The notes: generated by a model from the letters alone, not told the origin. DNA of 64,000 nt from an uncultured Candidatus Saccharibacteria bacterium (GCA_964594735.1 CAZQMS010000002.1:50023-114022), one strand, 5' to 3'. Positions 3,079 through 49,656 are shown, counted from the first letter of the stretch. Translations and numbers: made by a program.

Positions 3079-3082
3079 GGCG

Positions 3083-3532: not shown

Positions 3533-3558
3533 AGTGTATTGTTGCGTATAACCCTACT

Positions 3559-6653: not shown

Positions 6654-6711
6654 TATTGCTCCTCAGTTGCGCGTTTGTTTCGAGGGATAAGGTCACATAT
6701 ACTGGCTACCA

Positions 6712-7410: not shown

Positions 7411-7415
7411 CCGGT

Positions 7416-8126: not shown

Positions 8127-8136
8127 TGCGAGGATT

Positions 8137-15663: not shown

Positions 15664-15972
15664 GTGTATACTCGAGATATGGCGAAGAAGAACGCTCGTG
15701 CATCAGATAAGGTAGACACGATTGAAAAGCTCGCAATTCTTGTGCACGAGGGCTTTGAGCGTATAGACGAGCGGTTCGAGCGCATGGATAAGCGATTTGA
15801 TGAGGTAGACGCCCAGCTGCATGATATGCGGGCTGAATTGGCAGATATACGTCGCAGAATCGAAAGATTGGAAGCCCTGGGTGCGAATCATGCCGGATTT
15901 ACGAAGGAAATTGACCACCTCATCGCGCGTGTCACCGCGCTCGAGAAGCGTCTGGCAAGATCGAGTAAGTAG
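15664..15972 (+). CDS. Small coiled-coil protein (hypothetical). First gene of the giant-fibre array.
   Basis: 102 aa with heptad-rich ERFERMDKRFDEVDAQLHDMRAELADIRRRIERLEAL. Begins 3 bp after gatB. Confidence 0.45.
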   Translation: MYTRDMAKKNARASDKVDTIEKLAILVHEGFERIDERFERMDKRFDEVDAQLHDMRAELADIRRRIERLEALGANHAGFTKEIDHLIARVTALEKRLARSSK

Positions 15973-16034
15973 CGCTGTCCACACTATCTCGCCTGAGCGA
16001 GCAACCGAGATTCGGCTCAATGTATACTTATCTC

Positions 16035-17018
16035 ATGGCAGATGAGATATACCTCGGCAACACGACATATGTATCTTCAAAGCGCGCGGCAAAGGAATAC
16101 GGCTACGCGCAGGACTACGTCGGGCAGCTTGCGCGTGGTGGAGTCATCGACGCGCAGCGCGTAGGCGGGCTCTGGTACGTGAATCCCGCCTCGCTCGAGG
16201 CGTATAAGCGCAATGCTGAGGCCTATGTGCCAAAGATTGCAGAATCCTCCATACGCCCTCCTGAGGCCGCAGACACGCTTATAACCTTCGACGGCAAGGA
16301 TTACGTCTCCGCGGCCAAGGCAGCGCGCCTCACAGGCTACAACCCAGACTACGTGGGGCAGCTCGCGCGCGCCGGCAAAGTGCTCTCCAGGCAGATTGGG
16401 AACCGCTGGTATGTAGAGCGCGATGGACTTCTTGCGCACAAGGCGCAGAAAGACGCGCTGCTTGCAAACGTACAGGCAGAGTCCGTGGGCCTCGTGCGCC
16501 CCGTACAGCCTGCACCTGCGCCGCAAAAGGCAGAGGAAAGGCCTGTGTCGTTCTACACCTATTCGAGGGACGAGAAGCACCTTATGCCGGTGATGAACAA
16601 ACCACAGCCAACAGAGGACGGTCGACATGCGGCGACTGATGTGAACGTGGGGACGAATAGCGCGGTGCGAAGCACGGAGCTGGAGGTACTGCCGAATACC
16701 GTACCGATACGCATCGTCCAGACCCCCGTTCGTGCCAGTGTCGCACCGCGCGCAGAGGCAGCGGCGGTGCCGCTTCGCCGGGGTCGGACATCCGGAATGA
16801 CTAAGAGTCTAGCGCTCAAAGCGGGAGTGGCTCTCACGGTGGTGATCGTGATGTCGTACGGCTTTGCGTCGATCAAGAGCGAGTCACTCTATGCGATGTA
16901 CGACGCAGCCGACCTCAGCGCAGTCGAGACCATGACGGCGAATGCCGCGAGCGGACTAGATGCCCTCCTAGACCTCTTGGAAGCCGCTGTGAGCAACGAA
17001 GTTCACTATTCTCGCTGA
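16035..17018 (+). CDS. Membrane protein with two tandem excisionase-like HTH_17-type domains and a C-terminal TM helix
   Basis: Two internal repeats (YVSSKRAAKEYGYAQDYVGQLARGGVIDAQRVGGLWYV and YVSAAKAARLTGYNPDYVGQLARAGKVLSRQIGNRWYV) match the HTH_17 pattern. There is a TM helix at aa ~265-285. The longest ORF starts at 16020. Confidence 0.6.
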   Translation: MADEIYLGNTTYVSSKRAAKEYGYAQDYVGQLARGGVIDAQRVGGLWYVNPASLEAYKRNAEAYVPKIAESSIRPPEAADTLITFDGKDYVSAAKAARLTGYNPDYVGQLARAGKVLSRQIGNRWYVERDGLLAHKAQKDALLANVQAESVGLVRPVQPAPAPQKAEERPVSFYTYSRDEKHLMPVMNKPQPTEDGRHAATDVNVGTNSAVRSTELEVLPNTVPIRIVQTPVRASVAPRAEAAAVPLRRGRTSGMTKSLALKAGVALTVVIVMSYGFASIKSESLYAMYDAADLSAVETMTANAASGLDALLDLLEAAVSNEVHYSR

Positions 17019-17361
17019 GTATCCCACAGTCGATAGCCACAAAGCGGCGCCCGAAAGGGCGCCGCTTGTCATTTGTGCGTTGCACGCGCGAAATGTCGCT
17101 TTACATCGTTGCTCGGGAGTCCGAGTCGGCGCGGAGGTGCGGGTAGGTACGAGGCGAGAGGTTGTAGTGACGAGAATTCTTAAAAAAAGCGGAGAATTTT
17201 TTGCGCGTTGAAGCGAACTCGGAAGAAAAAAATAAAAAATGTCCGATACGAAATTCGTGTAATGTTTTCCACACAAAATCGTGTCCAATATGCGTCCAAT
17301 ACACGAAAAGACTAGTAAACTGTTAGATAAATCGTGCATCCGGCCTGATGAACAAACGCTC

Positions 17362-20300
17362 ATGAGCAACGAAATTTTCTTCGACGGATTGAAGTACATC
17401 TCGGCCGGCGATGCGTCTGAGACTACGGGACTTTCGCGTGACTATATCGCGAGACTTTGTCGCGACGGAAAGCTTCGCGGAAGGCGGGTTGGGAAGAACT
17501 GGTACGTCGATGAAGAGTCGCTCAGGCGTTTTGGTATCGAACAGGAGCATCAGAAGGCGGTGCGTAGGGTGCAGCTGTCGGAAGAGAGGGTGCGAGAGTA
17601 CCGCGGCGCGGCGGACAAGCCGCAAAGTTTAAAGTTGCAAGTAGAAAGTGAAAAGGCGACGGCCGTGACTGCGGTCACGAGCCATGAGTCACCAGTCACC
17701 CCCAAGGTGGCGCAACCAGTTGCGCCGACGGCCGTGACGAAAACATTTGCGGCGCACGCGAAGCACGTGCAGGACAAGCTTGCGGCCGCAGCGCTCGCAC
17801 AAAGTGCGAGAGTCGCACATGCGATGCCGTCTATCGCTGCAGCACCAAGTGGTGTGCATGAAGCGGTCGCACGTACGCTCAGCCATGCGCACGTGCATGT
17901 GCCGGTGTACACGCTCACACCTGCGGCGGAATTCTTGCAGAAGTTCGTTGCAATCTTTGTTGCGTTCACCATGACATTTGGCACGTACGCTTTTGTAGAC
18001 CCGGCGTACGCACGCTTTGCGGTAGAGTCTGCTCGCGGATTTCTCGCGAGCACTACAGAGTCGCTCGCACGCATTGATGACGCTGCTGATCGCGCGATGC
18101 GTGTGGCGCATAGCTCTGCGTACTTCGCTGCGGAGAATCCTGAGGTGGCGCTCGCGCAAGTCTCGAGCGCGACGCTCGCATTTATCCCGAACGCGCTGCA
18201 GAATCTCGCGCGCTCGTTCAACACGAGTGTCGACACCTTTGTCTACAACATCCTTTTCTCCGACGGTGCGACGAATTCTCTCGCGCTCACGCCGCTCGAC
18301 CCAGGATTTGTGGACGCGACAGCGCCGTATGAGCGTGCGCAGCAATTGGCAGCGCAGACATCTGTGCCACCCACCGTCGCAACGAGTACGACGACCGTCA
18401 TCACCAATGAGCGAATCGTCGAGCGCATCATTGAGACGGAGCGTATTGTCGCCGCGGCGGGCGGCATCAACGATGCGGACCTCGAATTGCGTCTTTCGGC
18501 GCTCGAGCAGCGCCTCACAGGCCTCGTCGCCGGTGTCTCTACGGCACAGACCACAAGCGTGAACAACGTCTACCAGACAGTGGCGCTCACCAACAAAATC
18601 GACCAGCTCAGTAGCGTCGACATTTCGGACTCTACGATTACGGGGGGCACCCTTTCGGGAGTGTCGCTGAGCGATATTTCATTCTCCGGTACCGCCACCA
18701 CGACCTTCGCCAATGGGATTGACCTTGCCGACGGGTGCTTCGCCGTAGATGGCGCGTGTATCACCGGCGGCGGTGGCTCTGTAGACACGAGCGTCTCGAA
18801 CAACTGGACGGCGCTCCAGATATTCTCAGGCGGTGCATCGAGTACCAACTTCTCCAACTTTGGTACCGCGTACTTCGGCGGCAGCGCGACGACGACCATC
18901 GACTCGACGGGGGCGCTCTCGCTCGCTAACCTCACCAATTCACTCTTGTGGGTAAATGGTAGCGGCACGGTCGCCGCGACGACGACGCCTACCGCCGCCT
19001 ATTTCATCGCCACGTCTACATCCCTTGCTTCTTCGTTCCCGTACGCATCATCGACCGCACTCTCCGTCTCGGGCACCGCATTCTTCCCCGGCTCCGGTAT
19101 CTGGGATTCATCCGGCAACGTCGGTGTTGGGGACACAACTCCAAGCTATGCACTCGATGTCAATGGCGTCGTGGCAACCAATAATTACTTCTTCAATACA
19201 AACACTGCGGCAACGCAAGTTCTCCTGAATAGTGGAACGACGTATTACGGTAACATTCAAAATGAAAGTGGTTCGCCGGACCGCTGGTCACTCGGGTATG
19301 GCACTACAAACACCACGGCACTCAAGACGCCGGTTCTCACTTGGACGAGTGGCGGAAATGTAGGTATTGGTACTTCGACGCCGTGGGCGAAGTTCTCGAT
19401 TGCGAACTCGACGGGCGACACCGCTGGCCAAGCGCTCTTCACCATCTCCTCCTCGACCGCATCTGCGACGACGACGCTCTTCCACGTGGCGAATAGTGGG
19501 AATGTGGGGGTGGGTACATCCAGTCCCATGGGGTTGTTTTCAGTGAGTGGTCAAATGACGAGTGACAGTTGGTGTTCGAACACACTCAGTGTCTGTGTGT
19601 ATCCTAGCAGCGGATTTTTCGCTATACGTAATCGGGCTAATAGCGCGTACGCACCAGTCTCGTTGGCTAACGTCTACTTTGGTGACGCGAATGTATATGT
19701 TGGTGGCGCAGGCATCACTGACACAGGGTCAACTCTTACGGTGGGAGGGAATTTAAGTGCCCATGCGTTTTATGACAAGGGCAACACTGCCTATTATCTA
19801 GACCCCGCGGCGGCAACATCTCTCATTGTTGCCGGCAAGGTCGGTGTGGGCACTACGTCGCCACTCGCCAAATTCGCAGTGCACGCTAACAACGGCGAGA
19901 CCAATACGCGGCTCTTTGAAATCGCATCTTCGACTGCGAGTGCGACGACAACACACTTTGTAGTGACCAACAGCGGGAATGTGGGTGTTGGGACAGCGAG
20001 TCCGTCAGGAAAATTGCACGTTGAAAACGGTAGATTTCTGGCAACAAGAAGTTCCAACAGCAAAGCGGCACACATCGCGTCGTTTGGTTCTTCGGCTAGC
20101 GCGGGGAACTCCTTGATAATTTACGGCGGAAACAATAGCGGAGACCCAATGTACATCGGCACAGACTACTGGTCTTCCGATGGTCAGTTGAGACTCGGCA
20201 CCTATACGACACCGGATACGATTGCGCTCGCAACGAACGGCAACGTCGGCATCGGGACGACGGATCCTCAGGCACTATTGCAAGTGCGTAAAAATCAGGC

Positions 20301-23300
20301 TGCAAGCACATGGGTTTCGGTTGCAAATTCGAATGCCGGTGGAACGGCAGGGTATCAGATTGGTTATACGAGCGCGGGCGAGATGGCTTCCCTCTATAGT
20401 GATATGGCGACAAATGATTTGTACTTGAAAAACGTTGCTACGGGCGGAGATTTCCGCGTCCTCGTTGAAGACACTACAGAGGCACTGACAATCTTAAACA
20501 CCGGCAACGTCGGCATAGGGACGACGACGCCCGGGTCGCTGCTCAACCTGTATGGAACAGGAAGCGGTACGGAACTTCGAATCGACAATGGTGGTGCCGA
20601 CGGCGACCCGTTCGTAAGCTTTGCACTTTCTGGTACACAAACATGGATTGCGGGAATCGACGATAGCGATAGTGACACGTTCAAGATAAATGCCACTTCC
20701 GGCAACTTCAACACAACAGGCCTCGCCATCACCACTTCCGGCAACGTCGGCATCGGGACGGCGAGTCCGCAAGGTGGTCTTTCCGTTGCGAGCGCGCTCA
20801 CGAGCACATCTCCCAGCGTTGTGGGGTGGCATCTCGGGACAACAGGCGGAACGACAAATGGACTTGAATCGTACAATACCGCAGCTACATACCTCGACTT
20901 CAGCAGTGTTTCGGAGCGCGATTATGATTTCCGACAGATCTTCACCGCCTCCACGAACGATTTACAATTTATTTCTTCTTCTACAAATCCTATCCTAACG
21001 CTCAAAGGAACCGGCAACGTCGGCATCGGGACGGTGAGTCCTGCCACTGCACTGCACATGTTGGGTAACTTCAGGATTCGACCTACTGGCGCCAGTACCG
21101 ACCTCAATATTTTGTTGAATTCTTCCGACCTTAGCATAGAAGGGACCGGTAGCTTGCGGCTGTCGTCGTCAGGTTCATCGCTCAAATACACTGTTGGCGC
21201 CTCGGGTGTTGGCGAAGTAGACCACATCTTTTACGGTGGCGGTTCGACCGCGGTCGCGCGCATTGAATCAAACACGCAGGCCGAGTATGCGAGACTGTCA
21301 CTGCAATCTGGTACCGCAAACAATTTCAGCCAACCCTATTTCACTATCACGTCGAATGGAGGCTCGACTGGCAACATCTTTACACTCAATTCGGCTGGCA
21401 ACGTCGGAGTAGGGACGACGACGCCGTGGGCGAAGTTCTCGATTGCAAACAATACGGGCGACACGGCGGGCCAGGCGCTCTTCTCCATCTCTTCCTCCAC
21501 CGCATCCGCAACGACGACTCTCTTCCACGTAGCGAACAGCGGGAATGTGGGTATTGGGACGGCGAGTCCTAGTTACGGACTGGATGTAACGGGGACAGGA
21601 AGACTTACTTCAACATTTGCGTGGGGTACAAGCGGTGCCACATACATGTACACGATTGGAGGAACGCAGAGGTACGGTTATTCCACAGCGAACGCGAATG
21701 TTCTGTATTCAGGCGGGAGTGGTGGTCTAACGATTTGGAATCAAGCTGACAGCTCGGAACTTGTTCGCATTACCGATTCTGGCAACGTCGGCATCGGGAC
21801 GACGAGTCCGTATAAGCATTTATCGATAAGCAGTAGTGCCAACTCCGACACCTCAGTAGTCATCGCTAATACGCATGCCAGTTTTAGCGCCGCAGTTTCG
21901 TCGACATACCAAACCGCGACCAAACGTTTCGATGCAGGATTGCTCGGTAACAGTAATTCTGTTGCTCCGAACTCATACTATATATACGATTCCAATAACG
22001 ATGCATTCCGCTTCATTGTGGGCGCGACGGGTAACATTGGTGTCGGTACAACAAGTCCGACCAACAAGCTCTCAATCGAGTCCAACACTGCGACGATTGG
22101 AGGACTTGCGGAAAATCTCAGGGTTGCAGGGGATCAGTACGAAGTAGGCATCGGGCTCGCGAACTACGGCTCTGGCGGCAACACATGGTCGCTCATGGCA
22201 ACGCGGGGGAACTCGTCTTTCGGAGGTGCAAAATTCCTCATCGCTGATTCCGCAGCTAACCGTTTCGCAATCGACTCCTCCGGCAACGTCGGCATCGGGA
22301 CGACGTCGCCACTTACGAAACTTTCAGTTCAGGGCACTGCGGGTGACAACGACGTCTTCAACGTCGCGTCGTCGACGGGTGCGAGCATGTTCTATGTCGA
22401 TTCGAGCGGGAAGGTCGGCGTGGGCACGATGACGCCTGATTATGCCTTCACCGTAAGCGGCACCGCTGCGACGTATGCCAGCGTGCAAAATTCCGCCGAT
22501 GAAGAAGCCGGTATTTTCTTCAGCACTGCAGCAAACGGCGGCAACGGCTGGGCACTGTTTATGGACGGGTCCAACGTAAACGATTTGGGCGCGACGCACA
22601 GGCTCGGCTTCTATTCCACAGATCTCAGTGCGACCACGATGACGCTCGACGGTGTGACGGGGAATGTGGGAATCGGGACGACGACGCCGTACAGCAAGCT
22701 CACAGCATGGGGCGGCGCGAGCGGCAACATTTTTGAAGCGGTCACGTCGGCCTCGACCACGGCGCTTCGCATCGCGGCAGATGGATTTGCGACGACGACA
22801 CTTTCCGGTCTCAGCATCAGCGGCAGCGCGACATCCACGTCCAACGTCGGCTTCAACCTCACTGCCGGCTGCTTCTCTATAAATGGTACGTGCGTCGGTG
22901 GGGGCAGTGGTTCGGGTACGGTCGGTAGCGGCACTACGGGGTGGTTCCCGTACTATGCGGGAGATGGCACGACACTCACCGCCACCTCCTCGATCTTCCT
23001 CGCAACAAGCGGCAAGATCGGCATCGGGACGACGACGCCGCGCAGGGGGCTGTCTGTTGTATCTTCTTCAGCGGCAGACACCAATGCCGAGTTTACGAGT
23101 ACGGCAAATGACGGATTTGGGGGATTCAACATATACAATAACTTCGGCACGCTCGTTACATCACTAGTCCACTCCAATGCCGGGGCAAGCGTTAATGCCA
23201 GTTCGACCTGGTTTGGTACAAGAAATGATGAGTCGCTACATCTTGTCACCAATGGCGCAACTCCGCGCCTGACTATCGACTCTTCCGGCGACGTCGGCAT

Positions 23301-24477: not shown

Positions 24478-24483
24478 TCATCT

Positions 24484-24969
24484 ATGACAACTATTCACCA
24501 ATTCGAAGACATGATGGCCTGGAAGAAGGCGAGGGAGCTCGCACGCGAGGTCTACACGGCGTTGCGCAGCAACAAGGACCGCGGATTTACCGACCAGATT
24601 CAGAGGGCAAGCGTTTCTGTCGTCTCGAACATCGCAGAAGGATTTGAAAGCGGCACGCGCGATATGTTCCTCAATTATCTCTACATCGCAAAAGGTTCGT
24701 GTGGGGAAGTGCGCGCGCAGCTCTACATCGCACACGACATCGGATACATAAACGTTCAAACATTTACATATTTGAATGACCTTGCTTTGCAGACTTCGCG
24801 GCTGATTTCTTCTTTCATCAAAGCGCTCAAGGGTTCGCCTCATCAGGGACTGCAGAGGAAGAAGGAACAGACGAAAGAAGAGAAATCCACAGAAGAATTT
24901 CTCCAGGATGCGCGCAAAGAACTAGCGAAAGTGATGCCGCACATATACGGGGTGGATGCGAAGAAATGA
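24484..24969 (+). CDS. Four-helix-bundle protein (23S rRNA intervening-sequence protein family, PF05635/TIGR02436) with a Lys/Glu-rich C-terminal tail
   Basis: DMMAWKKARELAREVY...SVVSNIAEGFESGTRDMFLNYLYIAKGSCGEVRAQLYIAHDIGYI matches the family consensus. Starts 7 bp after giant gene A. Confidence 0.85.
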   Translation: MTTIHQFEDMMAWKKARELAREVYTALRSNKDRGFTDQIQRASVSVVSNIAEGFESGTRDMFLNYLYIAKGSCGEVRAQLYIAHDIGYINVQTFTYLNDLALQTSRLISSFIKALKGSPHQGLQRKKEQTKEEKSTEEFLQDARKELAKVMPHIYGVDAKK

Positions 24970-29671: not shown

Positions 29672-29676
29672 ATCGT

Positions 29677-33900: not shown

Positions 33901-36900
33901 CGCAAGGTATCAACCTGTCAGGTGGATGCTTCTCAATAAATGGTACGTGCGTCGGAGGGAGTTCCGTTTCATCGCTCAACAATCTTTCTGATGCTGCTTC
34001 CGATAGCGACACGCTCTATCTCGGTACCAATGTCGGGGGTGACCCCAGCTTTTCTGGCGACGTGGTAGTTGGACCGGGGGCATTGAGCGCTTCTAGCGAA
34101 TCAAGCGGAAACGCTATTTTGGGATACCAGGCGGCGTCTGCAGGCAGTGCAATCCATCAGTTGTCCGTGCTCGGCTACGATGCATTTAGAAATATTAATA
34201 GCACAACGGGCGGCGTGGCGATCGGTCTGAATGCTGGGTACGGCGAGTCCGGGCTCTACAGCGCAAGCGGCTTGGTACTAGTGGGCTACCAAGCGGGGTA
34301 CAAGTTGCAGACTGGCGCCAACGAGAATACGCTCATCGGCCAAAATTCGGGGTACGAGCTTACGACAGGCTTGGGCAACGTTCTCATCGGTTCGTCCAAT
34401 TCGGTAGCATCGCGCGAGCAGGTAACCACTGGCAATCGCAATATCGCTATCGGTTATCGGGTAGCGTTGCCAAGCCAAACCGCAAACTACCAGCTCAACA
34501 TCGGCAATCTCATATATGGCACGGGGCTCGATGGTACGGACTACACCGTCTCCACTGGCAACGTCGGCATCGGGACGACGACGCCGTACAGCAAGCTCAC
34601 CGTGTGGGGCGGCAGCACCGGAAATATATTTGAGGCGGTCACGAGTGCGTCGACGACCGCGCTTCGCATCGCGGCAGATGGATTCGCGACGACGACACTG
34701 AGCGGCCTCAACATCTCCGGCAGCGCGACGTCCACGTCCAATGTAGGCTTCAATCTCTCCGGCGGATGCTTCGCAATCAATGGCACGTGTGTCGGGGGAG
34801 GCAGTGGCGGCGTCGCGCTAGGCGATGAAAATACCTGGACGGCGCTCCAGACATTCCAGCTCGGACTATTGTCGCAAGCGTCTTCGACCATCGGTGGCGG
34901 TACTGCTACAACAGGTCTCACCATTTCAGGTACCGGTACAACTACCGGCGCTCACTACGTGGGCGGCGGGCTCACCGTCAATAGCTCTACTGGCAGTTCG
35001 TTCTTGGGAACAGGGGACGTGTATCTCGGAAGTGGGACGCTCGTACAAGGTTTGGGTGGCGCACCCGACCTTTCTGTCGAGGGTTATATCAACACGAATG
35101 CCGGGATTAACACTGGTGGCGATGTGCGAATCGGTGGTAGTAGCGCGTCGATCTGGACTGCGCTCGGCGGTTCCGCTGACTTGGGAGTACAAGGTTGGAT
35201 AAATGCGAATACAGGACTTCAAACTGCGCAGGGTAGCGCTTCTACCCCTGGCCTGGTGTTTTACTCCACAAACAACACCGGCATATTCGCGACAGATGCA
35301 AATGCGAGCGCCGGCCTCGGATTTTCGACACAGGGTAGTGAAAGATTGCGGATAAGCAACACGGGCAACGTCGGCATCGGGACGACGACCCCGTGGGCGA
35401 AGTTCTCGATTGCCAACTCGACGGGCGACACCGCGGGTCAGGCGCTTTTCACCATCTCCTCCTCGACCGCGAGCGCGACCACAACGCTCTTCCATGTGGC
35501 CAACAGTGGCAAAGTCGGTGTGGGAACGCAGAGCCCGACCGCACTGTTTACAGTGGAGGGGGGAAATATCGGCATTGATGGTAATGCGTCTGCACAGCAA
35601 TTTTTTGGCGCAGGAGGCAATGTTGCTGGTACGAACACCACTGGCGGCGTTATGACTGTATTCGGCCATGCACCGAATACGTATCAGGACGTGTCGACGC
35701 CGCCGCATGATGGGTCGAACTTCGTAGGTGCTGCTGGATTCATTGCACGCGGATTCAGCGAGTCAGCTCAGTATCGCGGGAGTTTGGAGTTTTTCACAAA
35801 GACGGCAAGCGCAGCAAATGCCACGAGCAGGATGGTCATCACCCACGACGGCAACGTCGGCATCGGGGATACGAGCCCGGCGGCTCTCCTGACAGTGGGT
35901 GCGAACGACCTATTCCAAGTTGATTCATCCGGCAATGTGAGCATCCCCCAAGGCCAGTACCTGCGCTTCGCCGGTGCAACTGCAGACCAAGAGCAAATAG
36001 GATCTACTGCCACAGGACAGCTTGATCTCTTCGCGCGCGGAGCCATCAACGTGATTGCCGACACCAACAACAACGATACTGATGCAGATACCAACGCCTT
36101 TACAGTACGTACGAACGCCACGACGGTCGCCGGAGCCACGAGCCTCTTTTCGGTACGGCAAAGCGGCAACGTCGGTGTGGGGGCAACAGAGCCCAGTCAC
36201 AAACTTACCGTCGCCGGCGGATCCAACGGCGCAGCTTCGACGCTGAAAATCCAAAACACATCCGGTGCCGCCGACTCAACCGCCACCCTATTTCTCAACA
36301 CGAGCTCAAGCGCAAGCGACACCACAGTCGGTGCGCAGATCCAATCTATCCGAACGAATACAGGCGGAGGTGGTAGCAACGAGCTTGCCTTCAGCACAAG
36401 CCTCACGACGACCATGACCGAGCACATGCGCATTCTCGCTTCTGGCAATGTCGGCATCGGTACGACGTCGCCACTTACAAAGCTTTCGATCCAGGGTACT
36501 GCGGGCGCCAACGACGTGTTCAATATCGCATCGTCGACCGGTGCGAGCCTGTTATACGTCAATGCGAGCGGCAATGTTGGAGTTGGGACGGCTTCGCCGG
36601 GCGGGAAGCTCCATGTATACAGCGGTGCTGCCGGCGTATCTGCGAACAGTTCGCTCGATGACTTCGTTATTGAGGGCAGTGGCGACACCGGCATGTCAAT
36701 TCTGACGCCCAACAGCAACACTGCGTACTATGGATTCGGCGACCCAGACGATAGCTTTGTGGCGGGGGTGCGGTATCTTCACGCTTCGGACCGGTTGGAC
36801 CTAATCTCAGGCAACTCGACGGGAGTTTCAGTTCTGGGCACAGGTCACGTCGGCATTGGCAATACTGACGCGGTTTCGCTTCTGACCATCACTGCAGATT

Positions 36901-38264
36901 CTGCCGATTCGACAGATGTCGATAAGAACCAACTAACGCTTCGCTCGCGCCGCCAGTCCATATCTAGCTCGGCCACTGCCGCGCTCATCGGCGGTATCAA
37001 CTTTGACACCGACGACACGAGCCTCACGTCGCCAGGAACCACGACCGCGTCGATACGCGTCATTGCGACGAATACACACACGACATCCCAGTACGCCGCC
37101 GCAATGGAGTTCTTTACGTCGACAGGCGTTACACGGACGCGCAACTTCCGCATTGGACCGACGGGCAACATAAGTCTCAACTCATTTGCGTCTGCTACCG
37201 GCAACACCGTCTGCTACGACACGACGTCAGTGTCCGGCATGAACACGTTCGCCACCTGCTCCTCGGATGAGCGGCTCAAGCACGATATCGCGACGCTCCA
37301 GAGTGGCGGGCTTGAGAGGATACTTTCGCTACGTCCGGTGAATTTCGTGGGCAATGACGACGCCTCGGGCAAAATGCGCGCAGGCTTTATCGCGCAGGAA
37401 GTGCTCGGCATAATCCCGGAAGCGATAGGTCAAAACCCCGCCGACGGGTACTACACGCTCGACACCGGCTCGATACTCTCGCACTCGGTGAAGGCGATTC
37501 AGGAACTCAATCTGAAAGTTGAGAGCATCGCATCGACAACATTGGAACTCGCGCCGGAGTCTCTGGGCGCGCGCGTGTTCGCGTCGCTCAAGACGCGTCT
37601 CATCACGTGGTTTGCCGATGCAGCGAGTGGAATCGGCGACTTCTTCGCGAATCGCGTGCGCACCAAAGAGCTCTGCGTGGGTGACGGTAGTGGAGAGACG
37701 TGCATCACGAGAGCGCAGCTCGATGCACTGATAGCGGGCGTTGCGCAGGCTTCATCGAGCGGTGGGGGCGGGGGAGGTGGTCAGAATGAGTCGCCCACCG
37801 AAGATGCACACGATGACCCAGTCGATACAGAAGCTCCAGTGATTACGATTCACGGCAACAATCCGGCGGTGCTCCAAATCGGAGAAGCGTACAGCGACCT
37901 GGGCGCGAGCGTGAGCGACCCTTCGACAGGCTCAGGGCAGGCAAACGAGAACCTGGGAATCAAGGTGAGTGTCAATGGTGGTGAGGAGATTGGACTCGGC
38001 TTGATAGTCATCGACACCTCTCTGCCCGGTGAACACACCATCGAATACCGTGCCACCGACCAAGCGGGCAATGTCGGCACCGCGACGCGTACGGTCTTGG
38101 TAGTCGACCCGAATCCTTCGTCAGACGAATCAGCATCTGTAGAGCCCAATATTGAGCCTCTCGAAGAGGTACCCACGGACGACGATACGGATGTAGAAGA
38201 GGTGGCCAGTACGACCTCATTAGATACACAAAGCGATCAAACGGGGCAAGCGCCATCCAATTGA
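30930..38264 (+). CDS. Giant fibre protein B (2444 aa): N-terminal TM anchor, paralogous stalk and GNVGIGTTTP repeat region, Peptidase S74 intramolecular-chaperone autoprocessing domain, DUF5011 Ig-like domain, acidic tail
   Basis: CSSDERLKHDIATL...LRPVNFVGNDDASGKMRAGFIAQEVLGIIPEAI...YYTLDTGSILSHSVKAIQEL (S74/CIMCD signature). Then PVITIHGNNPAVLQIGEAYSDLGASVSDP...HTIEYRATDQAGNVGTATRTVLV (DUF5011). ATGA overlap with the upstream gene. Confidence 0.85.
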   Translation: MTMNESFISAIAHFIRDAGEIIAVRLLEWVRGVMDTALGHAKADLQQHAQKAVSVVKHAASQATTGERIPLALPEPAPMLRLSAASTNALGGYMAAVLGFALVFNYAPAVYEKSAAYAAWAAQEARSQTALVSMFSLGPISQKPAIDLQQLFRAPTSTPSMKLPRPALAPSSTGASVQAPSATTPSTRESVQPPVFRQAAQSIQNVYNTYPVVERIREEVRYVNVGATGDISDQLNELYERIQRQIGSLSTNTSAQFTQTYQVVSQSQRIDQLGSVDISDSDITGGTITGSTLSDVSFASGFSLGVASGGTGTTTAPSYGQLLLGNSAGGYDLVATSSLGITGGGGASLTGTTGQLAYFSGTDTAVGTSTLFIATTGGIGIGTTTPAGALQITHDPNDDSALVLDQLNDSTALNSKSALYITNTDPTESNWGIIGFGIDPLGSPAAKIGVQFTDRAQNFGDIVFGTRNASGMNEWVRLTSEGNFGIGTSNPGAKLEVAGGASTTRLSVFDVAYFGGSATSSFDSTGSLSLAAPLATSSGGTGISSYSVGDILYVNSVGTLARLAAGSAGQVLKISAGVPSWGADATGGGGAGAFATSSDNLLISPTDTDNVLVLGASATSTTGNIFEVNGASLFRSIVTAYGAVTAPYFSATSSTASTFTGGLLSLASTTIGGGSATTGLTISGGATTTGNAYFGGNVGIGVSPAYTLDVAGRGRFVGANGAVGAIGGEDYVLSLQNNGNSSWLEILNQGGAGQGVFFGVSDNRTANAFELWNYQAGPIDFFTSTDASDGSNRLRIAADGKVGIGTTSPWGKLSVAAADNASAPQFVVASSTSASFVVTSSGNVGLGTANPDALLTLAGGSIHMVLGARNTYIGDADLLPITPTGGPDVADFYITGGTNNDFFIASQANGTGEGLRFGNASDAGATFTEYMTILGAGTGAGRVGIGTTSPGSILSVQGVGNFVASATSTFYNGLSLVGSLNVGGSATSTFAQGINLSGGCFSINGTCVGGSSVSSLNNLSDAASDSDTLYLGTNVGGDPSFSGDVVVGPGALSASSESSGNAILGYQAASAGSAIHQLSVLGYDAFRNINSTTGGVAIGLNAGYGESGLYSASGLVLVGYQAGYKLQTGANENTLIGQNSGYELTTGLGNVLIGSSNSVASREQVTTGNRNIAIGYRVALPSQTANYQLNIGNLIYGTGLDGTDYTVSTGNVGIGTTTPYSKLTVWGGSTGNIFEAVTSASTTALRIAADGFATTTLSGLNISGSATSTSNVGFNLSGGCFAINGTCVGGGSGGVALGDENTWTALQTFQLGLLSQASSTIGGGTATTGLTISGTGTTTGAHYVGGGLTVNSSTGSSFLGTGDVYLGSGTLVQGLGGAPDLSVEGYINTNAGINTGGDVRIGGSSASIWTALGGSADLGVQGWINANTGLQTAQGSASTPGLVFYSTNNTGIFATDANASAGLGFSTQGSERLRISNTGNVGIGTTTPWAKFSIANSTGDTAGQALFTISSSTASATTTLFHVANSGKVGVGTQSPTALFTVEGGNIGIDGNASAQQFFGAGGNVAGTNTTGGVMTVFGHAPNTYQDVSTPPHDGSNFVGAAGFIARGFSESAQYRGSLEFFTKTASAANATSRMVITHDGNVGIGDTSPAALLTVGANDLFQVDSSGNVSIPQGQYLRFAGATADQEQIGSTATGQLDLFARGAINVIADTNNNDTDADTNAFTVRTNATTVAGATSLFSVRQSGNVGVGATEPSHKLTVAGGSNGAASTLKIQNTSGAADSTATLFLNTSSSASDTTVGAQIQSIRTNTGGGGSNELAFSTSLTTTMTEHMRILASGNVGIGTTSPLTKLSIQGTAGANDVFNIASSTGASLLYVNASGNVGVGTASPGGKLHVYSGAAGVSANSSLDDFVIEGSGDTGMSILTPNSNTAYYGFGDPDDSFVAGVRYLHASDRLDLISGNSTGVSVLGTGHVGIGNTDAVSLLTITADSADSTDVDKNQLTLRSRRQSISSSATAALIGGINFDTDDTSLTSPGTTTASIRVIATNTHTTSQYAAAMEFFTSTGVTRTRNFRIGPTGNISLNSFASATGNTVCYDTTSVSGMNTFATCSSDERLKHDIATLQSGGLERILSLRPVNFVGNDDASGKMRAGFIAQEVLGIIPEAIGQNPADGYYTLDTGSILSHSVKAIQELNLKVESIASTTLELAPESLGARVFASLKTRLITWFADAASGIGDFFANRVRTKELCVGDGSGETCITRAQLDALIAGVAQASSSGGGGGGGQNESPTEDAHDDPVDTEAPVITIHGNNPAVLQIGEAYSDLGASVSDPSTGSGQANENLGIKVSVNGGEEIGLGLIVIDTSLPGEHTIEYRATDQAGNVGTATRTVLVVDPNPSSDESASVEPNIEPLEEVPTDDDTDVEEVASTTSLDTQSDQTGQAPSN
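37850..38100 (+). repeat. ~250-bp near-identical segment shared with 42110-42365 (DUF5011-coding region of giant proteins B and C)
   Basis: Direct comparison shows long identical runs, e.g. agcgtgagcgacccttcgacaggctcag...gcaaacgagaacctgggaatcaaggtgagtgtcaatggtggtgaggag... and ...atagtcatcgacacctctct...gaacacaccatcgaataccgtgccaccgaccaagcgggcaatgtcggcaccgcgacgcgtacggtc. Confidence 0.8.
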
Positions 38265-38293
38265 TATGAACAGCTCGATTTTCTCACACATCT

Positions 38294-41200
38294 ATGGCTG
38301 ATCACATCCAATTCGACGGAAGAACGTATGCGCAACTTGCGGATGCTGCCTCTATTGTCGGCACTGACGAGGCACACGTGCGATTGCTCGGCACTCAGGG
38401 CAAAGTTTTCCTGCGCGCAGTGGGGAAAAAAATATACGTAGACGTGGAAGGCCTACGCAAGGCACTCGCTGCTCCGCCTGCTGCACGCCTCGTACAGCAG
38501 GAGCCACCTGCGGTTGCTGCGAATGCTGCACAGACGAAGGAGGCGCCGCCCATGGCTGCAGCACCGAGCTCATTGCATCAATCTGCGGCGCTGCCACATG
38601 CAATCACGATGCTGTCGCAGGTCGCGTCGGCAAAAGTGGCACAAGCGCAGCAGCGAGCGACCTCATCGATAATGAGGAAGACCACGTCGCAAAGCAAGGT
38701 GATGCAGACGCAACCGAGGGTGTACATATCGCCGGCCACGGAGAAACGCATCCAGCTGCCTACGAACGAGGCCAAACCCACGTCATCACGAGCGACCGCT
38801 TCCGCGCCTCACGCGATTCCCGCGAAGACGTCGGCGGAGCTTTCCGCGGCCGGTGCGCTGTCGGCTATCATCTTGCCCCCGACTCAGCACCTTTCTGCGG
38901 CAGGCCGCTCCGTCTTGACGACGGGCGCGGCACTCGCGGCGTTCGTATTTGTCGTCGGTCTCGGTGTTGCGGCATCAAGCCATGCACCGGCCGCGCTCAC
39001 CTGGGCAGACAAGATTCACAACCAGGTTGCTTCCGCTGTTCGTGCTGGCAGTGTCTCGTATTCACCGACGATGGGTACTGTCGAGAGCGCCACACCACAG
39101 AATTCTCCCAGCGAGCTGCAAGCGAGCGCAACCGCTACGACGCTCCTATCGTCTGCGACGACGTCCCAGCCCATCTACTACGTCTACAATTACCCAGTCA
39201 TCGAGCGGGTAACAGAGGAGGTGCGCTACATCAATGCGAGTACTCCAGCAGAATTCAATGCTGCGCTGGATGACCTGTACAATCGCATCCAACAGCAGAT
39301 TCAGAGCCTGAGCATCACAACCAACACGAGCTTCGCACAGCAGTACCAAGTCATCTCGCAGTCGAGCAATATCGACCAGCTCGGGAGCATTACCATCGAG
39401 GATTCGACAATTACCGGTGGCACAATTAGCGGTGCGACTATTTCGGGAGGTTCTGTGACAGCGACCGCATACTCCGGCACTCTCGGCATCGCAAACGGCG
39501 GCACTGGTACCACCACCGCTCCGTCGGCCAATCAAGTGTTTCTCGCCGCTGCCGATGGCACGTGGTCATATGTCGCGACGTCATCGCTCGGCATCTCGGG
39601 CGGCGCCGACACAAGTGTCTCCAACACCTGGACCGCGCTCCAGCTTTTCTCCGGAAACGCCTCCTCGACCAACTTCTCCACTTTCGGCACCGCGTATTTC
39701 GGCGGAAATTCCACAACTACAATCGATTCGACCGGCGCGATCACCGTCACATCCTCGAGCGCCAACACCTTCCCGTATGCATCCACGACGGCGCTCACCG
39801 TCTCGGGGACAGCGTATTTCGGCAATATCTTTAGCGGTACGGGGCACACGATTACTGGTACGTACGCATTCGGTTCCGGTGCGACGCATAGCATCTCTGG
39901 CAGCTACGCGTTCGCCGGCGGCGGCCAGCAGAATACATTGTCGGCAGAAGCCACAGCAGCGGTAGGCGGATACGGCAACACGGCGAGCCAATCGTATGCA
40001 TTCGTAGGAGGCGGTCAGGCGAATACCGCAAGCAATGTGTACGCCGCGATTATCGGCGGCGTGTCGCATGTGGCGAGCGGAGCAAAGTCATTCATCGGGG
40101 GCGGAGAACAGAACACGGTTTCCGGAGAGAATGCCGCGAGTGCCGGTGGTTATGGCAACACAGCGAGCGCGTTCGGTACATTTGCGGGAGGCGGTCAGAA
40201 TAATCAAGCACAAGATGTCTACGACGCTGTCGTGGGTGGTACCGGAAACGTGGCAAATGGCGGCAATGCGTTTATCGGCGGCGGTACCGACAACGACGCA
40301 ACGGGCGACAAGTCGGGAACCGTCGGGGGTTATGGCAACACGGCCGCGGGAGAAAGCAGCTTCGTCGGCGGTGGTCAAGCAAATCAAGCGCTCGACGTGT
40401 ATGACGTCGTCCTGGGTGGGGCCGGACATACGGTCAACGGCGGCTACTCATTCGCGCTTGGCGGGCAGGGCAACACCGTGACGGGTGACTACAGCGGCGC
40501 TTTCGGTCGCGCGCTTACCGTGAGCGGCACCGGCTCCTTCGGCTTTGGTCTAGACGGCGGTTCCCACACGATCTCCGCCAACAACACATTTGCAATCCTG
40601 GGCGGCAACGTCGGCATCGGGACGACGACGCCCAGTGCCAAGCTTGTCGTACAAAACGATTCCTCAAACAACGTGCTGCTCGTGAAGGGCAGTGGTGGGT
40701 CAACCGTCTACTTTAACAATCTATCAGGCTCTGATTTGGCGACTATCGGGTACGCCAATAATCATCTATCTTTGATTAACTCCAACCCCTCAGGTTCGTT
40801 GCTTGTATACACTGGCGGCAGTGAGCGCTTGCGTATCACCGAGACCGGCAACGTCGGCATCGGGACGACGACGCCGTGGGGCAAGCTCTCCATCACTGCG
40901 ACTGACAACGCCTCTGCCCCACAATTTGTCGTTGCGTCATCTTCCGCTACGAGTCTGGTTGTCACTGCAAGCGGCAATGTGGGTATCGGGACGACACAAC
41001 CGGAACAGTTGCTACGCGTTGGCGTAACCAGTTCGGCTTTTGATCATGATGGAACCGTGGCAATAGGGAGCGATGCGTCAGGTATAGCGCTCCACCTTGA
41101 GGAAAATACCGGGGCTGAGGGATGGAAAGTTGGAATCAATGCGGCAGGCGATATGCTCTTCGATGATTCAACTGCAGGTAACACAATGGTTATTTTTCAG

Positions 41201-42514
41201 GACGGAACAGGCAACGTCGGCATTGGGACAACGACGCCCGCCTCTAAGTTGAACATTCATTATGGCTCCGTCTCCTCCAGCGATACTACACCGCTTGAAA
41301 TTTTGCGCCTCGGATGGGACGGCTCCAGTGCAGACGAGCAAGCGGGGGTCGGTGTCAAAATCGCCTTTCATGGATCCAATGCCAACAATCTTCCATCCAC
41401 TGCGGAGGTCGCTAATATAGGGACGACGAGAGTGAGCGGCGTGGAGGGTAGTACGCTTACCTCGCTTCTTTTTTCTACGAACGACGGTACTACGCTTGCG
41501 GAAAGACTGCGAATCACCGGAGCCGGCGATCTCATCGTGGCGGCGACCAATTCATCGGGTGGCAACACGTCGCTCTGCTGGGACGGCTCCGGTTCATCCA
41601 CATGGGGCGGTTGTACCTCGCTCGCAAAGTACAAGGACAATGTGACCAACTTGTCGCTTGGACTCGACGCTGTGTTGCAGCTCCGCCCGGTAGAGTTCGA
41701 CTGGAATGAACACAGTGCGGCCATCGGACACGACCTCGGCTTTATTGCCGAAGAAGTAGAGGCTATCAGCCCGCTACTCGCGGAGCATAGCGGTCAGGGT
41801 GGTGCGCTGTCTGGCGTAAAGTACAACACGATGTCGGCCTTGCTCGTGAGGGCTGTGCAAGACATCGCAAATCTAGCGGATGCGTTCAAAGTTAAGCTCA
41901 TTGCGTGGTTCGGGAATGCCGGGAACGGGATTGCGGATTTCTTTGCAGACAACGTTCGAGCCCGTAATCAACTCTGCGTCGGCTCGACGTGCGTCAACGA
42001 GGCGCAGCTCGCCGCGCTGCTCGCCAATTCGGCGAGTGGTGCAGGTGGAAACGGTTCTCCCGCCGCGCCCGGCGCCGAAATTACCCCGGTGAATGATACG
42101 GAACCACCAACAATCACCATCCTCGGCAACAACCCGGCGACGGTGCAGGTGGGTGATGCGTATAGCGACCTCGGCGCAAGCGTGAGCGACCCTTCGACAG
42201 GCTCAGCGCAGGCAAACGAGAACCTGGGAATCAAGGTGAGTGTCAATGGTGGTGAGGAGGTTGAACTCGGTTTGATAGTCATCGACACCTCTCTACCGGG
42301 CGAACACACCATCGAATACCGTGCCACCGACCAAGCGGGCAATGTCGGCACCGCGACGCGTACGGTCATTGTCGAGGGGATTGCAAGCGACGGGGATCAG
42401 GAGGCAGAGGAGGATTCACTGCCTCAGAATGTGTCCACCGAGGAAGTCGACGACACGGGTGACGGGTCCGCGCCTGATGAAGAGCACGGTGATGCTCCGC
42501 CCTCAGAGGGCTAG
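38294..42514 (+). CDS. Giant fibre protein C (1406 aa): excisionase-like HTH N-terminal domain, TM helix, repeat-rich fibre, Peptidase S74 chaperone domain, DUF5011 Ig-like domain, acidic tail
   Basis: N-terminus MADHIQFDGRTYAQLADAASIVGTDEAHVRLLGTQGKVFLRAVGKKIYV. TM helix LTTGAALAAFVFVVGLGVAA. S74-like CTSLAKYKDNVTNLSLGLDAVLQLRPVEFDW...LGFIAEEVEAISPLL. C-terminal DUF5011 nearly identical to that of protein B. Confidence 0.85.
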   Translation: MADHIQFDGRTYAQLADAASIVGTDEAHVRLLGTQGKVFLRAVGKKIYVDVEGLRKALAAPPAARLVQQEPPAVAANAAQTKEAPPMAAAPSSLHQSAALPHAITMLSQVASAKVAQAQQRATSSIMRKTTSQSKVMQTQPRVYISPATEKRIQLPTNEAKPTSSRATASAPHAIPAKTSAELSAAGALSAIILPPTQHLSAAGRSVLTTGAALAAFVFVVGLGVAASSHAPAALTWADKIHNQVASAVRAGSVSYSPTMGTVESATPQNSPSELQASATATTLLSSATTSQPIYYVYNYPVIERVTEEVRYINASTPAEFNAALDDLYNRIQQQIQSLSITTNTSFAQQYQVISQSSNIDQLGSITIEDSTITGGTISGATISGGSVTATAYSGTLGIANGGTGTTTAPSANQVFLAAADGTWSYVATSSLGISGGADTSVSNTWTALQLFSGNASSTNFSTFGTAYFGGNSTTTIDSTGAITVTSSSANTFPYASTTALTVSGTAYFGNIFSGTGHTITGTYAFGSGATHSISGSYAFAGGGQQNTLSAEATAAVGGYGNTASQSYAFVGGGQANTASNVYAAIIGGVSHVASGAKSFIGGGEQNTVSGENAASAGGYGNTASAFGTFAGGGQNNQAQDVYDAVVGGTGNVANGGNAFIGGGTDNDATGDKSGTVGGYGNTAAGESSFVGGGQANQALDVYDVVLGGAGHTVNGGYSFALGGQGNTVTGDYSGAFGRALTVSGTGSFGFGLDGGSHTISANNTFAILGGNVGIGTTTPSAKLVVQNDSSNNVLLVKGSGGSTVYFNNLSGSDLATIGYANNHLSLINSNPSGSLLVYTGGSERLRITETGNVGIGTTTPWGKLSITATDNASAPQFVVASSSATSLVVTASGNVGIGTTQPEQLLRVGVTSSAFDHDGTVAIGSDASGIALHLEENTGAEGWKVGINAAGDMLFDDSTAGNTMVIFQDGTGNVGIGTTTPASKLNIHYGSVSSSDTTPLEILRLGWDGSSADEQAGVGVKIAFHGSNANNLPSTAEVANIGTTRVSGVEGSTLTSLLFSTNDGTTLAERLRITGAGDLIVAATNSSGGNTSLCWDGSGSSTWGGCTSLAKYKDNVTNLSLGLDAVLQLRPVEFDWNEHSAAIGHDLGFIAEEVEAISPLLAEHSGQGGALSGVKYNTMSALLVRAVQDIANLADAFKVKLIAWFGNAGNGIADFFADNVRARNQLCVGSTCVNEAQLAALLANSASGAGGNGSPAAPGAEITPVNDTEPPTITILGNNPATVQVGDAYSDLGASVSDPSTGSAQANENLGIKVSVNGGEEVELGLIVIDTSLPGEHTIEYRATDQAGNVGTATRTVIVEGIASDGDQEAEEDSLPQNVSTEEVDDTGDGSAPDEEHGDAPPSEG

Positions 42515-49605: not shown

Positions 49606-49656
49606 GAGAAAATTGTAACATGTGGGCGCCTGAGGATTCTTGAGCGTGCTACACTG

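Follow-up and report, generated by a model that had tools for sequence, protein, structure and literature searches.

The 64-kb stretch of DNA analysed here (64,000 nt, CAZQMS010000002.1:50023-114022 in GCA_964594735.1, referred to as the window) carries an island of genes at positions 15664–42514 that encodes three giant fibre proteins, termed G1, G2 and G3, and a secreted lectin-like protein with a DUF7483 domain. The island probably specifies trimeric surface adhesin fibres that serve in host recognition and are built from domesticated phage receptor-binding parts. With the same moderate confidence it is taken to be a vertically inherited, fast-diversifying chromosomal locus of a Kaiserbacteria-like bacterium of the Candidate Phyla Radiation (CPR). 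The evidence consists of gene content, domain identities, homologies to fibres of phages and of a bacterial predator, a gene order found in both phages and cells, and chromosomal synteny.

Coordinates of the island are those of the window, + strand. L-numbers denote related loci and P-numbers related proteins; HTH stands for helix-turn-helix and TM for transmembrane. The genes and features are:

15664–15972, +, coiled-coil open reading frame of 102 aa, GTG start 3 nt past the gatB stop; doubtful member of the system
16020–17018, +, HTH2, tandem winged-HTH and TM protein of 332 aa (HTH_17, TM window, orthologues)
17042–17067, +, terminator-like hairpin between HTH2 and G1, 11-bp stem with 9 GC pairs, by pattern match only
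17281–24477, +, G1, giant fibre 1, open reading frame of 2398 aa (open reading frame map); alternative starts are GTG 17281, ATG 17290 (2395 aa, the database gene call) and a homologue-aligned start at 17362
17362–17610, +, predicted cytoplasmic winged-HTH domain of G1, excisionase/MerR/RacA-like fold
17941–18000, +, predicted signal-anchor TM helix of G1 (hydrophobicity window at residues 221–240, block conserved in homologues)
24160–24474, +, C-terminal tip of G1, beta-sandwich of the phage tail-fibre C-terminal type
24484–24969, +, four-helix-bundle protein of 161 aa, 23S_rRNA_IVP family (Pfam)
24966–29102, +, secreted lectin-like protein of 1378 aa, SPRY/LamG/DUF7483 with LVIVD (Pfam, phage homologues)
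29099–29671, +, type I signal peptidase S26 of 190 aa (Pfam, TIGR02227, motifs)
29677–30933, +, Ig-like (DUF5011) acidic-tail protein of 418 aa (Ig similarity, orthologues)
30936–38264, +, G2, giant fibre 2, ATG start, 2442 aa (the database gene call); TTG 30930 is an alternative start (2444 aa)
37263–37424 and 37842–38102, +, S74 and Ig-like domains of G2
38294–42514, +, G3, giant fibre 3, 1406 aa
41618–41773 and 42113–42373, +, S74 and Ig-like domains of G3

The giant fibre proteins

The initial annotation, made from the nt sequence by itself, described three paralogous giants rich in Thr, Gly and Ser with a recurring GNVGIGTTTP-type motif. Composition, motif counts and open reading frame sizes bear this out, with Ala as a further abundant residue. 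G1 consists of 13% T, 12% S, 11% G and 11% A. The motif, written as G[NKDHG][VIFL]G[IVL]G, is present in 38 copies (21 in G1, 13 in G2 and 4 in G3) at irregular spacings of 42–368 aa, and with a slightly narrower pattern none is found in any frame of the rest of the window.

A phmmer search of the PDB gave matches of G1 (E-value = 1.3e-9) and G2 (E-value = 4e-7) to 8OND, the structure of Bd2133, as well as a match to 8OJN, a Bdellovibrio fibre (E-value = 3.6e-8). The alignments with 8OND and 8OJN pass through an SGNxGxGTxxP loop. PHROG tail-fibre families match G1 with an E-value of 1e-48. The Bdellovibrio structures represent mosaic adhesive trimer (MAT) fibres, which are trimeric and beta-helical, are situated on the cell surface and recognise prey (PMC10769870). 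The earlier prediction of trimeric beta-helical fibres is thus supported by sequence homology to solved fibres.

The three proteins differ in layout. G1, with residues numbered from position 17281, shows a winged HTH (residues ~28–110), a TM helix (~221–240), a helical neck, capping-loop motifs spanning residues 612–2272 and a beta-sandwich tip that is not an S74 domain. G2 displays no HTH and a weak TM segment (~89–107), followed by its motifs, an S74 domain, an Ig-like domain and an acidic tail. G3 has a divergent winged-HTH-like N-terminus and a TM segment at ~203–235, and then motifs, S74 domain, Ig-like domain and acidic tail as in G2. The full architecture first proposed for these proteins, i.e. 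HTH, TM helix, fibre, S74, Ig-like domain and acidic tail, is therefore found in G3, but not in G2, which lacks the HTH, or in G1, which has a non-S74 tip.

The S74 and Ig-like (DUF5011) ends assigned to G2 and G3 were recovered in domain searches, the Pfam name of the latter now being Bact_surface_Ig-like. Peptidase_S74 scores 41.0 and 36.8 bits in G2 and G3, with a Pfam cut-off of 22. A canonical SDERLK is present at residue 2112 inside the G2 domain. The G3 domain has SLAKYK at residue 1109, in which Ser and Lys are kept. The Ser/Lys spacing is conserved, and the +1 position is L in G3, whereas 33 of 36 homologues have D or S there. Acidic tails end all three Ig-domain proteins, with 15–17 D/E and 1 K/R in the last 60 residues. 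Sequence searches of the PDB with the S74-Ig region, and likewise with the G1 tip, gave no useful match.

Cassettes of 150–280 nt with 76–88% nt identity are shared within and between the three fibre genes. Two are found as pairs (37824–38101 and 42095–42372; 22657–22910 and 34554–34807) and one as a triplet (19354–19545, 21397–21588 and 35364–35555). Outside the cassettes the giants share ~30–39% aa identity. A cassette identity this far above the rest suggests recent duplication, gene conversion or cassette shuffling among the fibre paralogues. Scaled from published MAT models (550 Å for 922 aa and 150 Å for 370 aa; PMC10769870), the G1 ectodomain of ~2150 aa would extend roughly 85–130 nm.

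The G1 tip and the phage two-gene module

AlphaFold2 (AF2) monomer models of G1 are confident only for the winged HTH (residues 1–84) and the last ~105 residues; linker, neck and fibre are of low confidence. The C-terminal model is a beta-sandwich with 236 viral structure matches, many of them named tail fibre. Homologues of the tip carry PF26209 (Phage_phiTE_241_C); PF26209 and PF26696 are precomputed annotations on the homologues.

The 1378 aa protein had been described as an LVIVD-propeller/LamG protein. Six LVIVD repeats (E-value = 1e-53) and a Laminin_G_3 domain (E-value = 2e-27) are indeed present, plus SPRY, and DUF7483 is found with an E-value of 1e-76. A signal peptide (residues 1 to ~46, cleavage between AEA and AY) precedes a LamG/SPRY region. 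DUF7483 is split by the inserted LVIVD propeller (~580–900), and Laminin_G_3 is situated at residues 1081–1217.

Homologues of this protein are found in 444 phage records, most of which belong to podophages infecting Pelagibacter, picocyanobacteria, Methylophilales and Roseobacter; the names given to these homologues are virion structural protein, tail fiber protein or SPRY-domain protein. The phage matches cover residues 44–618, 910–1026 and 1238–1355, so that only the signal peptide and the LVIVD and LamG insert are left uncovered, and the identity over all non-inserted regions is 34–40%. They begin at residues 44–63, and the cellular copies carry an N-terminal signal peptide. Propeller-free orthologues are present in L077 (850 aa) and in phages. 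A scan of a genome collection with the whole 1378 aa sequence gave mostly unrelated LVIVD propellers from many phyla, but also led to the mosaics of fibre and propeller in L002 and L035.

In three of the four podophages examined, the gene directly 5′ of the DUF7483 homologue ends in a G1-type tip, as detected with a hidden Markov model of the tip (MEP301, E-value = 2e-27; cyanophage SS120-1, E-value = 2e-21; roseophage CRP-811, E-value = 5e-13). In SS120-1 the tip gene follows the gene of the internal virion protein, which is the T7-like tail-fibre position. The same order, fibre followed by DUF7483 protein, is found in seven cellular loci (the window, L069, L070, L072, L073, L077 and L083). 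L083 was retrieved by its tip alone, yet it also displays this order. In the window the 161 aa gene lies between the G1 tip and the DUF7483 gene. The adjacency of tip gene and DUF7483 gene in both phages and cells points to a shared two-gene phage receptor-binding module. Judged from the sequences, the phage pair appears to have been adapted for export in cells, the DUF7483 protein having gained a signal peptide and the fibre an anchor and length. The lectin tips of the initial annotation are thus retained in part: lectin-like domains are present, but they probably reside in a separate secreted SPRY/DUF7483 subunit paired with the G1 tip domain and not in the tip itself.

MEP301 also encodes gp21, a 'tail structural protein' (L078 8348–9226), with a weak match to the fibre-plus-S74 part of G2 and G3 (E-values = 9e-8 and 6e-6), so that MEP301 carries relatives of both fibre types of the island. 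LVIVD repeats are found joined to fibres in other loci. A Patescibacteria single-cell genome, AM-311-L09 (L002 356–8728), encodes a 2790 aa fibre with six LVIVD repeats, S74 and two Ig-like domains; the propeller stands just before S74 and Ig, which indicates that LVIVD propellers are used at fibre tips. A 3181 aa protein of Magasanikiibacteriota (L035 8852–18397) has 19 LVIVD repeats alternating with fibre modules.

The winged-HTH anchor

HTH2, originally described as a tandem-HTH membrane protein, shows two HTH_17 stretches (37.2 bits, cut-off 27) and one TM helix. It consists of two excisionase/MerR-type winged-HTH domains, a TM segment at ~260–285 and a short outside tail. Orthologues with 39–43% identity occupy the same position in L064, L065 and L077. 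HTH_17 in G1 covers residues 40–84 and scores 25.6 bits, just under the cut-off, and the HTH-like domain of G3 is visible by alignment, not by Pfam. The N-termini of G1 and G3 and both domains of HTH2 align as one family; G2 is without the domain.

The AF2 model of residues 1–84 of the G1 domain (pLDDT ~90) predicts the order strand-strand-helix-helix-strand-strand, then a long helix. The top Foldseek matches are Xis of mycobacteriophage Pukovnik, RacA, TraN and BldC, with probabilities of 0.97–1.0 and TM-scores normalised to the target (TMt) of 0.58–0.76 for Xis, RacA and BldC and ~0.35 for TraN. The E-values are weak (0.07–0.4) because the winged-HTH domain is small. A disordered linker, one hydrophobic helix and the helical neck follow. 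Inspection of the G1 N-terminal sequence showed no cleavable signal peptide, and a signal anchor is predicted because one hydrophobic helix follows a domain without signal peptide. The block LTFGTYAxVDP is conserved at the G1 TM region in 23 homologues.

Out of 1.84 billion cluster representatives, a profile of the winged-HTH, TM and neck region retrieved 296 at E ≤ 1e-30 and 3204 at E ≤ 1e-10. Many of these proteins are 1.3–6.9 thousand aa long, and among the long members scanned P0249 and P0251 display the complete architecture from HTH to S74 and Ig. By these profile matches the winged-HTH-TM-fibre architecture is a sizeable unnamed family. It is probably under-counted, since most homologues are partial and situated at contig ends; such genes break short-read assemblies. 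One family member, P0243 (2252 aa), contains an Intein_splicing domain at residues 1201–1634 (E-value = 9e-16) inside the giant fibre; an intein within an exported surface fibre would be unusual.

Conservation of the island

The CPR context recognised at the outset is confirmed by SecA (74–76% identity) and GatB (61–65% identity) matches to the closest contigs, Candidatus Kaiserbacteria-like and Parcubacteria MAGs. The 5′ flank of the island consists of glycosyltransferases, a Wzy_C/TPR protein, secA and gatB, and the 3′ flank of gap, rpiB, rpe, a split transketolase (tkt), pfkB, glpX, class I aldolase, ribosomal protein L25 and prfA. At least five diverged genomes, with GatB identities down to 47%, have the island at this chromosomal site. 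It lies between gatB and gap in L066, L072, L077 and L083. The upstream edge, SecA-GatB-HTH2-fibre, is the same in L064, L065 and L077, and L064 and L065 also keep the order Wzy_C/TPR-SecA-GatB. Gene orders in related loci are:

L077: SecA, GatB, tandem-HTH protein, 1369 aa fibre with a G1-type tip (53% identity), S26, NYN-domain gene, 850 aa LamG/SPRY/DUF7483 protein without propeller, Ig-like protein, GAPDH, RpiB
L072 and L083: fibre tip, DUF7483 protein(s), S26, Ig-like protein, GAPDH
L069: four-helix-bundle gene in the same slot (74% identity); a further HTH-fibre begins after S26
L066 (GatB 47%): one frameshifted fibre, from HTH to S74 and Ig, between GatB and GAPDH
L085: tip, S26 and Ig-like protein kept, with a transposase in place of DUF7483

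These gene orders indicate a core of tandem-HTH protein, G1-type fibre, DUF7483 protein, S26 and Ig-like protein. By the same comparison, G2 and G3 are additions in this genome. The eight genes were initially taken as one functional unit; the conserved core is smaller, with G2, G3, the four-helix-bundle gene and the 102 aa open reading frame as variable extras. Products of the island genes are singletons when clustered at 90% identity in the protein collection. In relatives the proteins carry NCBI names such as 'helix-turn-helix domain-containing', 'tail fiber domain-containing' and 'DUF5011 domain-containing protein', and no naming of the array as an adhesin or S-layer system was found there.

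Gene organization and smaller genes

The sizes and coordinates of the eight genes named initially were reproduced in the open reading frame map, all on the + strand. They are co-directional as proposed, but the segment 15664–42514 holds nine open reading frames when the 102 aa frame at its 5′ end is included. ATGA overlaps were confirmed at the 24966 and 29099 junctions but not at 30930, where the sequence is TTGA with a TTG start and the ATG is at 30936. The other gaps from G1 to G3 measure 5–29 nt. HTH2 and G1 are separated by 260–340 nt and the strong hairpin, which points to at least two transcription units.

The type I signal peptidase is well supported (Peptidase_S26, 107 bits and Pfam E-value = 1e-30; TIGR02227, 111 bits, cut-off 47), with an E-value of 4e-32 for the Peptidase_S26/TIGR02227 match of the 190 aa protein. 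The Ser and Lys boxes are intact (SGGSMEPT, KRVVGMPGE and GDNRSKSSDGR) and the enzyme is of the standard bacterial P-type. No second S26 gene is present within the window, and the label 'dedicated' given to the enzyme initially found no support. S26 is part of the island in L069, L071, L072, L077, L083 and L085.

The 418 aa protein displays an N-terminal hydrophobic segment, an uncharacterised domain, an Ig-like domain at residues 223–301 and the acidic tail. From its sequence, the N-terminus may be a signal anchor or a cleavable signal (between VFA and AT). It had been called a DUF5011 membrane protein. The Ig-like domain stands, with 44% identity to the Ig-like domains of G2 and G3 and 35.7 bits for the L077 orthologue, but the protein's own Pfam score is below threshold (25.5 against 27). 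Orthologues in L072 and L077 are 46–54% identical and situated beside S26 and before gap. The pair S26 followed by Ig-like protein is found in the window (29099–30933), in L072 (8688–10612) and, by Pfam, in L083 (15774–17297) and L085 (4459–6152), and so is kept even in L085, which is without a DUF7483 gene.

The four-helix-bundle assignment was also correct (23S_rRNA_IVP/TIGR02436, E-value = 9e-32). The gene is present in the same slot in L069 (711–1187, 74% identity) and missing from L070, L072, L073 and L077, and family members occur amid housekeeping genes (L065 6735–7094; L066 13156–13503 and 14012–14368). Since the family is scattered in this way, it is not counted as a component of the system and is probably an independent small, moving gene in a variable slot. 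The slot between fibre and DUF7483 protein hosts other small genes as well, S26 and an NYN-domain gene in L077. The 102 aa open reading frame gave no tblastn match in L064, L065, L066 or L077, and its coiled-coil matches are below every cut-off.

Directly upstream of secA there is a glycosylation cluster (1469–10386) consisting of GT2, a nucleotidyl transferase, a PMT_2-like mannosyltransferase, a methyltransferase and the Wzy_C O-antigen-ligase-like/TPR protein. The Thr/Ser-rich fibres could be glycosylation substrates. Downstream, the glpX open reading frame (49222–50634, + strand, 470 aa, GTG start) overlaps a pfkB-family gene on the opposite strand (48616–49605, − strand) by ~380 nt; its FBPase domain begins only at residue 154, so that the true start of glpX is probably much later.

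Proposed model

It is proposed that G1, G2 and G3 would be inserted as single-pass proteins, N-in/C-out, by the predicted signal-anchor helix, which the helical neck follows, with an excisionase/MerR-type winged HTH on the cytoplasmic side in G1 and G3. The ectodomains are predicted to fold as trimeric beta-helical fibres of mosaic build, in which a GNVGIGTxxPxxKL loop caps every module; on the scale of the MAT models, G1 would measure tens of nm to ~100 nm. The S74 domain of G2 and G3 would act as intramolecular chaperone and would probably cleave itself at the Ser of SDERLK or SLAKYK, which would free a fragment of chaperone, Ig-like domain and acidic tail. G1 would end instead in the phage tail-fibre C-terminal beta-sandwich. 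The DUF7483 protein would be exported via Sec, trimmed by signal peptidase I and docked on the G1 tip as distal carbohydrate-binding subunit, as presumably in the podophage homologues. The assembled fibre, displayed on the surface, would allow the small cell to recognise glycans on the surface of a host or partner and to hold on to them.

Several observations weigh against this model. Trimerisation and beta-helix geometry of the giants are predicted by homology, and the AF2 monomer model of the G1 fibre before the tip is of low confidence. Autocleavage of G2 and G3 is uncertain, since ~280 residues follow the S74 domain in both, an atypical placement, and Leu in G3 replaces the Asp or Ser of the family. 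The hydrophobic segment of G2 is weak (Kyte-Doolittle 1.53). The roles of the G1 tip as putative docking domain and of the DUF7483 protein as putative distal receptor-binding subunit are taken from gene adjacency only, and pelagiphage HTVC011P has DUF7483 genes with no detectable tip upstream. L085 keeps the tip and the S26-Ig pair without a DUF7483 gene, and L084 is without both. The fibre and DUF7483 proteins of the phages are not known to interact physically. A DNA-binding-type fold on the cytoplasmic side is not explained by a fibre model.

Comparison with known systems

The architecture had initially been considered not to be a described system, which does not hold for the fibre part. This belongs to the MAT/phage tail-fibre kind described in 2024 (PMC10769870). 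New here are the winged-HTH anchor, the co-opted phage partner protein and the conserved island.

In MATs the end next to the cell is conserved and the tips are diverse, being formed by an S74 chaperone with SDxxxK in some and by other folds in others; one member binds prey glycans (PMC10769870). The island fibres resemble them in the homologous sequence of the fibre modules, including the SGNxGxGTxxP capping loop of these mosaic beta-helical fibres, in having two classes of endings (S74 in G2 and G3, the non-S74 beta-sandwich tip in G1) and in the presence of several paralogues per genome. MATs also serve a small bacterium that must recognise other bacteria. The differences concern size, ~600–1000 aa in MATs and 1400–2440 aa here, and the N-terminus. 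MATs have a signal peptide and a beta-rich N-domain of ~130 aa that retains the fibre on the diderm surface; the island fibres have instead the winged HTH, signal-anchor helix and helical neck, a distinction drawn from the description of the MAT N-domain (the PDB entries are C-terminal fragments). In addition, S74 is followed in the island by an Ig-like domain and acidic tail, and the secreted DUF7483 partner, the S26 peptidase and the tandem-HTH protein are co-encoded. CPR bacteria are not in the list of lineages in the supplement of the MAT paper (PMC10769870).

The podophage module contains the same two domains in the same order (MEP301 gp17-gp16; SS120-1 CYYG_00030-00029; CRP-811 33-32). 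However, the phage proteins assemble in the cytoplasm on the virion, display no signal peptide or TM segment and have fibres of 131–876 aa, whereas the cellular counterparts are, as predicted from their sequences, exported and anchored in the membrane, and they are much longer. The DUF7483 protein of the window also has the LVIVD propeller and an extra LamG domain. Moreover, the island is without phage genome context, having housekeeping flanks and a conserved chromosomal position.

G2 and G3 share with S74 chaperones, e.g. those of the phage K1F endosialidase, the T5 L-shaped tail fibre pb1 and animal MyRF, an above-threshold S74 domain and the Ser...Lys pair, and the expected role would be trimer folding followed by self-cleavage. 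The classical domain is C-terminal, whereas a linker, Ig-like domain and acidic tail (~280 residues) follow it here, and G3 shows SLAKYK in place of S[D/S]xxxK.

Fibre and pilus operons with their own signal peptidase are known, e.g. tapA-sipW-tasA of Bacillus subtilis and the SipA/LepA of the Streptococcus pyogenes pilus. The island resembles them in having a type I signal peptidase gene inside a surface-fibre locus and conserved there in relatives. It differs in that the enzyme is a standard P-type S26, which may be an extra, dedicated copy or the sole LepB of the cell.

Very large membrane-targeted proteins of Absconditicoccaceae, also Patescibacteria, have been proposed as host-recognition candidates (PMC13059738). 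Giant size, TM or signal segments and adhesion-type domains are common to both. The domains there are fibronectin III, integrin, concanavalin-type and adhesin-repeat domains, and the paper describes no tail-fibre/S74 architecture, HTH anchor or conserved island (PMC13059738). Among the papers covered by the literature search, none links CPR/Patescibacteria to S74, endosialidase-type or tail-fibre proteins or describes this system.

Alternative explanations

The giants could form a general surface coat or matrix, such as an S-layer-like canopy or a means of aggregation or of attachment to particles and biofilms, with the lectin-like protein binding the cell's own glycans. This is considered unlikely, yet it is the strongest of the alternatives. 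Surface proteins of very large size are widespread in Patescibacteria, and host binding is for most of them no more than presumed (PMC13059738), the LamG region gives a weak match to the S-layer-domain protein structure 4QVS (E-value = 4e-8), and the upstream glycosylation cluster (GT2, PMT_2, Wzy_C/TPR) is syntenic in relatives. On the other hand, Pfam and NCBIfam searches found no SLH or other S-layer anchoring domain in the proteins of the locus, and the parts have their homologues specifically among the receptor-binding proteins of phages and a bacterial predator. Close relatives also vary strongly (fibres of 1369 and 2398 aa, presence or absence of the propeller, extra fibres), as is typical of recognition molecules and not of structural coats.

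Adhesion might be secondary, and the winged-HTH-TM-fibre proteins might be trans-envelope sensors, acting as membrane-tethered DNA-binding regulators or as tethers for DNA or the nucleoid; their cytoplasmic winged HTH would respond to contacts made by the fibre, with HTH2 in the same circuit. The confidently modelled excisionase/MerR-type fold, with its likeness to Xis, RacA (a chromosome anchor), TraN and BldC, is consistent with this, as are the conservation of the winged HTH at the N-terminus of hundreds of giant proteins and the tandem-HTH protein always directly upstream. However, DNA binding is putative, the Foldseek E-values of the model are weak, and the winged HTH could be merely a cytoplasmic plug for assembly or retention. 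G2 does without the domain, the locus encodes no components of signalling or regulated proteolysis, and the S74 cleavage site, being extracellular, cannot release the HTH. A sensor or tether function thus appears quite improbable. The same low probability is assigned to a one-protein contact sensor, in which a phage-derived fibre would be physically linked to DNA at the inner membrane face with HTH2 as partner. If this were true, host contact would be coupled to gene regulation, nucleoid positioning or the handling of incoming DNA, and the arrangement would be widespread in Paceibacteria, in hundreds of families.

A decaying prophage or a passively carried tail-fibre cassette without cellular function is very improbable. 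The strong matches to phage tail-fibre and virion-protein families and the phage-like gene pair would be expected of such an element. But the window contains no capsid, portal, terminase, tail tube, baseplate, integrase or lysis genes, and the flanking genes are secA, gatB, gap, rpiB, rpe and tkt. The open reading frames are intact, up to 2444 aa long, the chromosomal position is the same in diverged genomes, and a TM anchor and a Sec signal peptide have been added to the cellular copies. Scans of viral contigs with the N-terminal half of the DUF7483 protein and with the G1 tip gave no close relatives. A prophage or tailocin was rejected on the missing phage structural genes and these empty scans.

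CPR bacteria are known carriers of diversity-generating retroelements (DGRs), and the four-helix-bundle protein gives a weak match to PHROG 'Avd protein of DGR' (E-value = 6e-4), but an anti-phage or diversity-generating system with this protein as Avd targeting the fibres is the least credible explanation, the window having no reverse transcriptase, its repeats being paralogous fibre cassettes and no template/variable pair, and the four-helix-bundle gene lying scattered among housekeeping genes in relatives. The DGR was rejected on the first two of these grounds and a defence system on PADLOC, which gave only weak coiled-coil and HTH matches.

Significance

The literature covered says little on how CPR/Patescibacteria beyond Saccharibacteria find and hold their hosts; it documents type IV pili in Saccharibacteria and only generic 'large surface proteins' elsewhere. 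The island, interpreted as a set of domesticated adhesin fibres, is a concrete, conserved and approachable candidate for host attachment in CPR bacteria. It documents the domestication of a two-gene phage receptor-binding module by way of added export signals, with a DUF7483 lectin-like partner also found in podophages that infect abundant bacteria of marine and fresh waters. Hosts of uncultured Kaiserbacteria could be predicted with the help of the tip and DUF7483 sequences. If the interpretation is true, phages, a bacterial predator and ultrasmall CPR bacteria, which are presumed episymbionts, would use one toolkit for bacterial surfaces.

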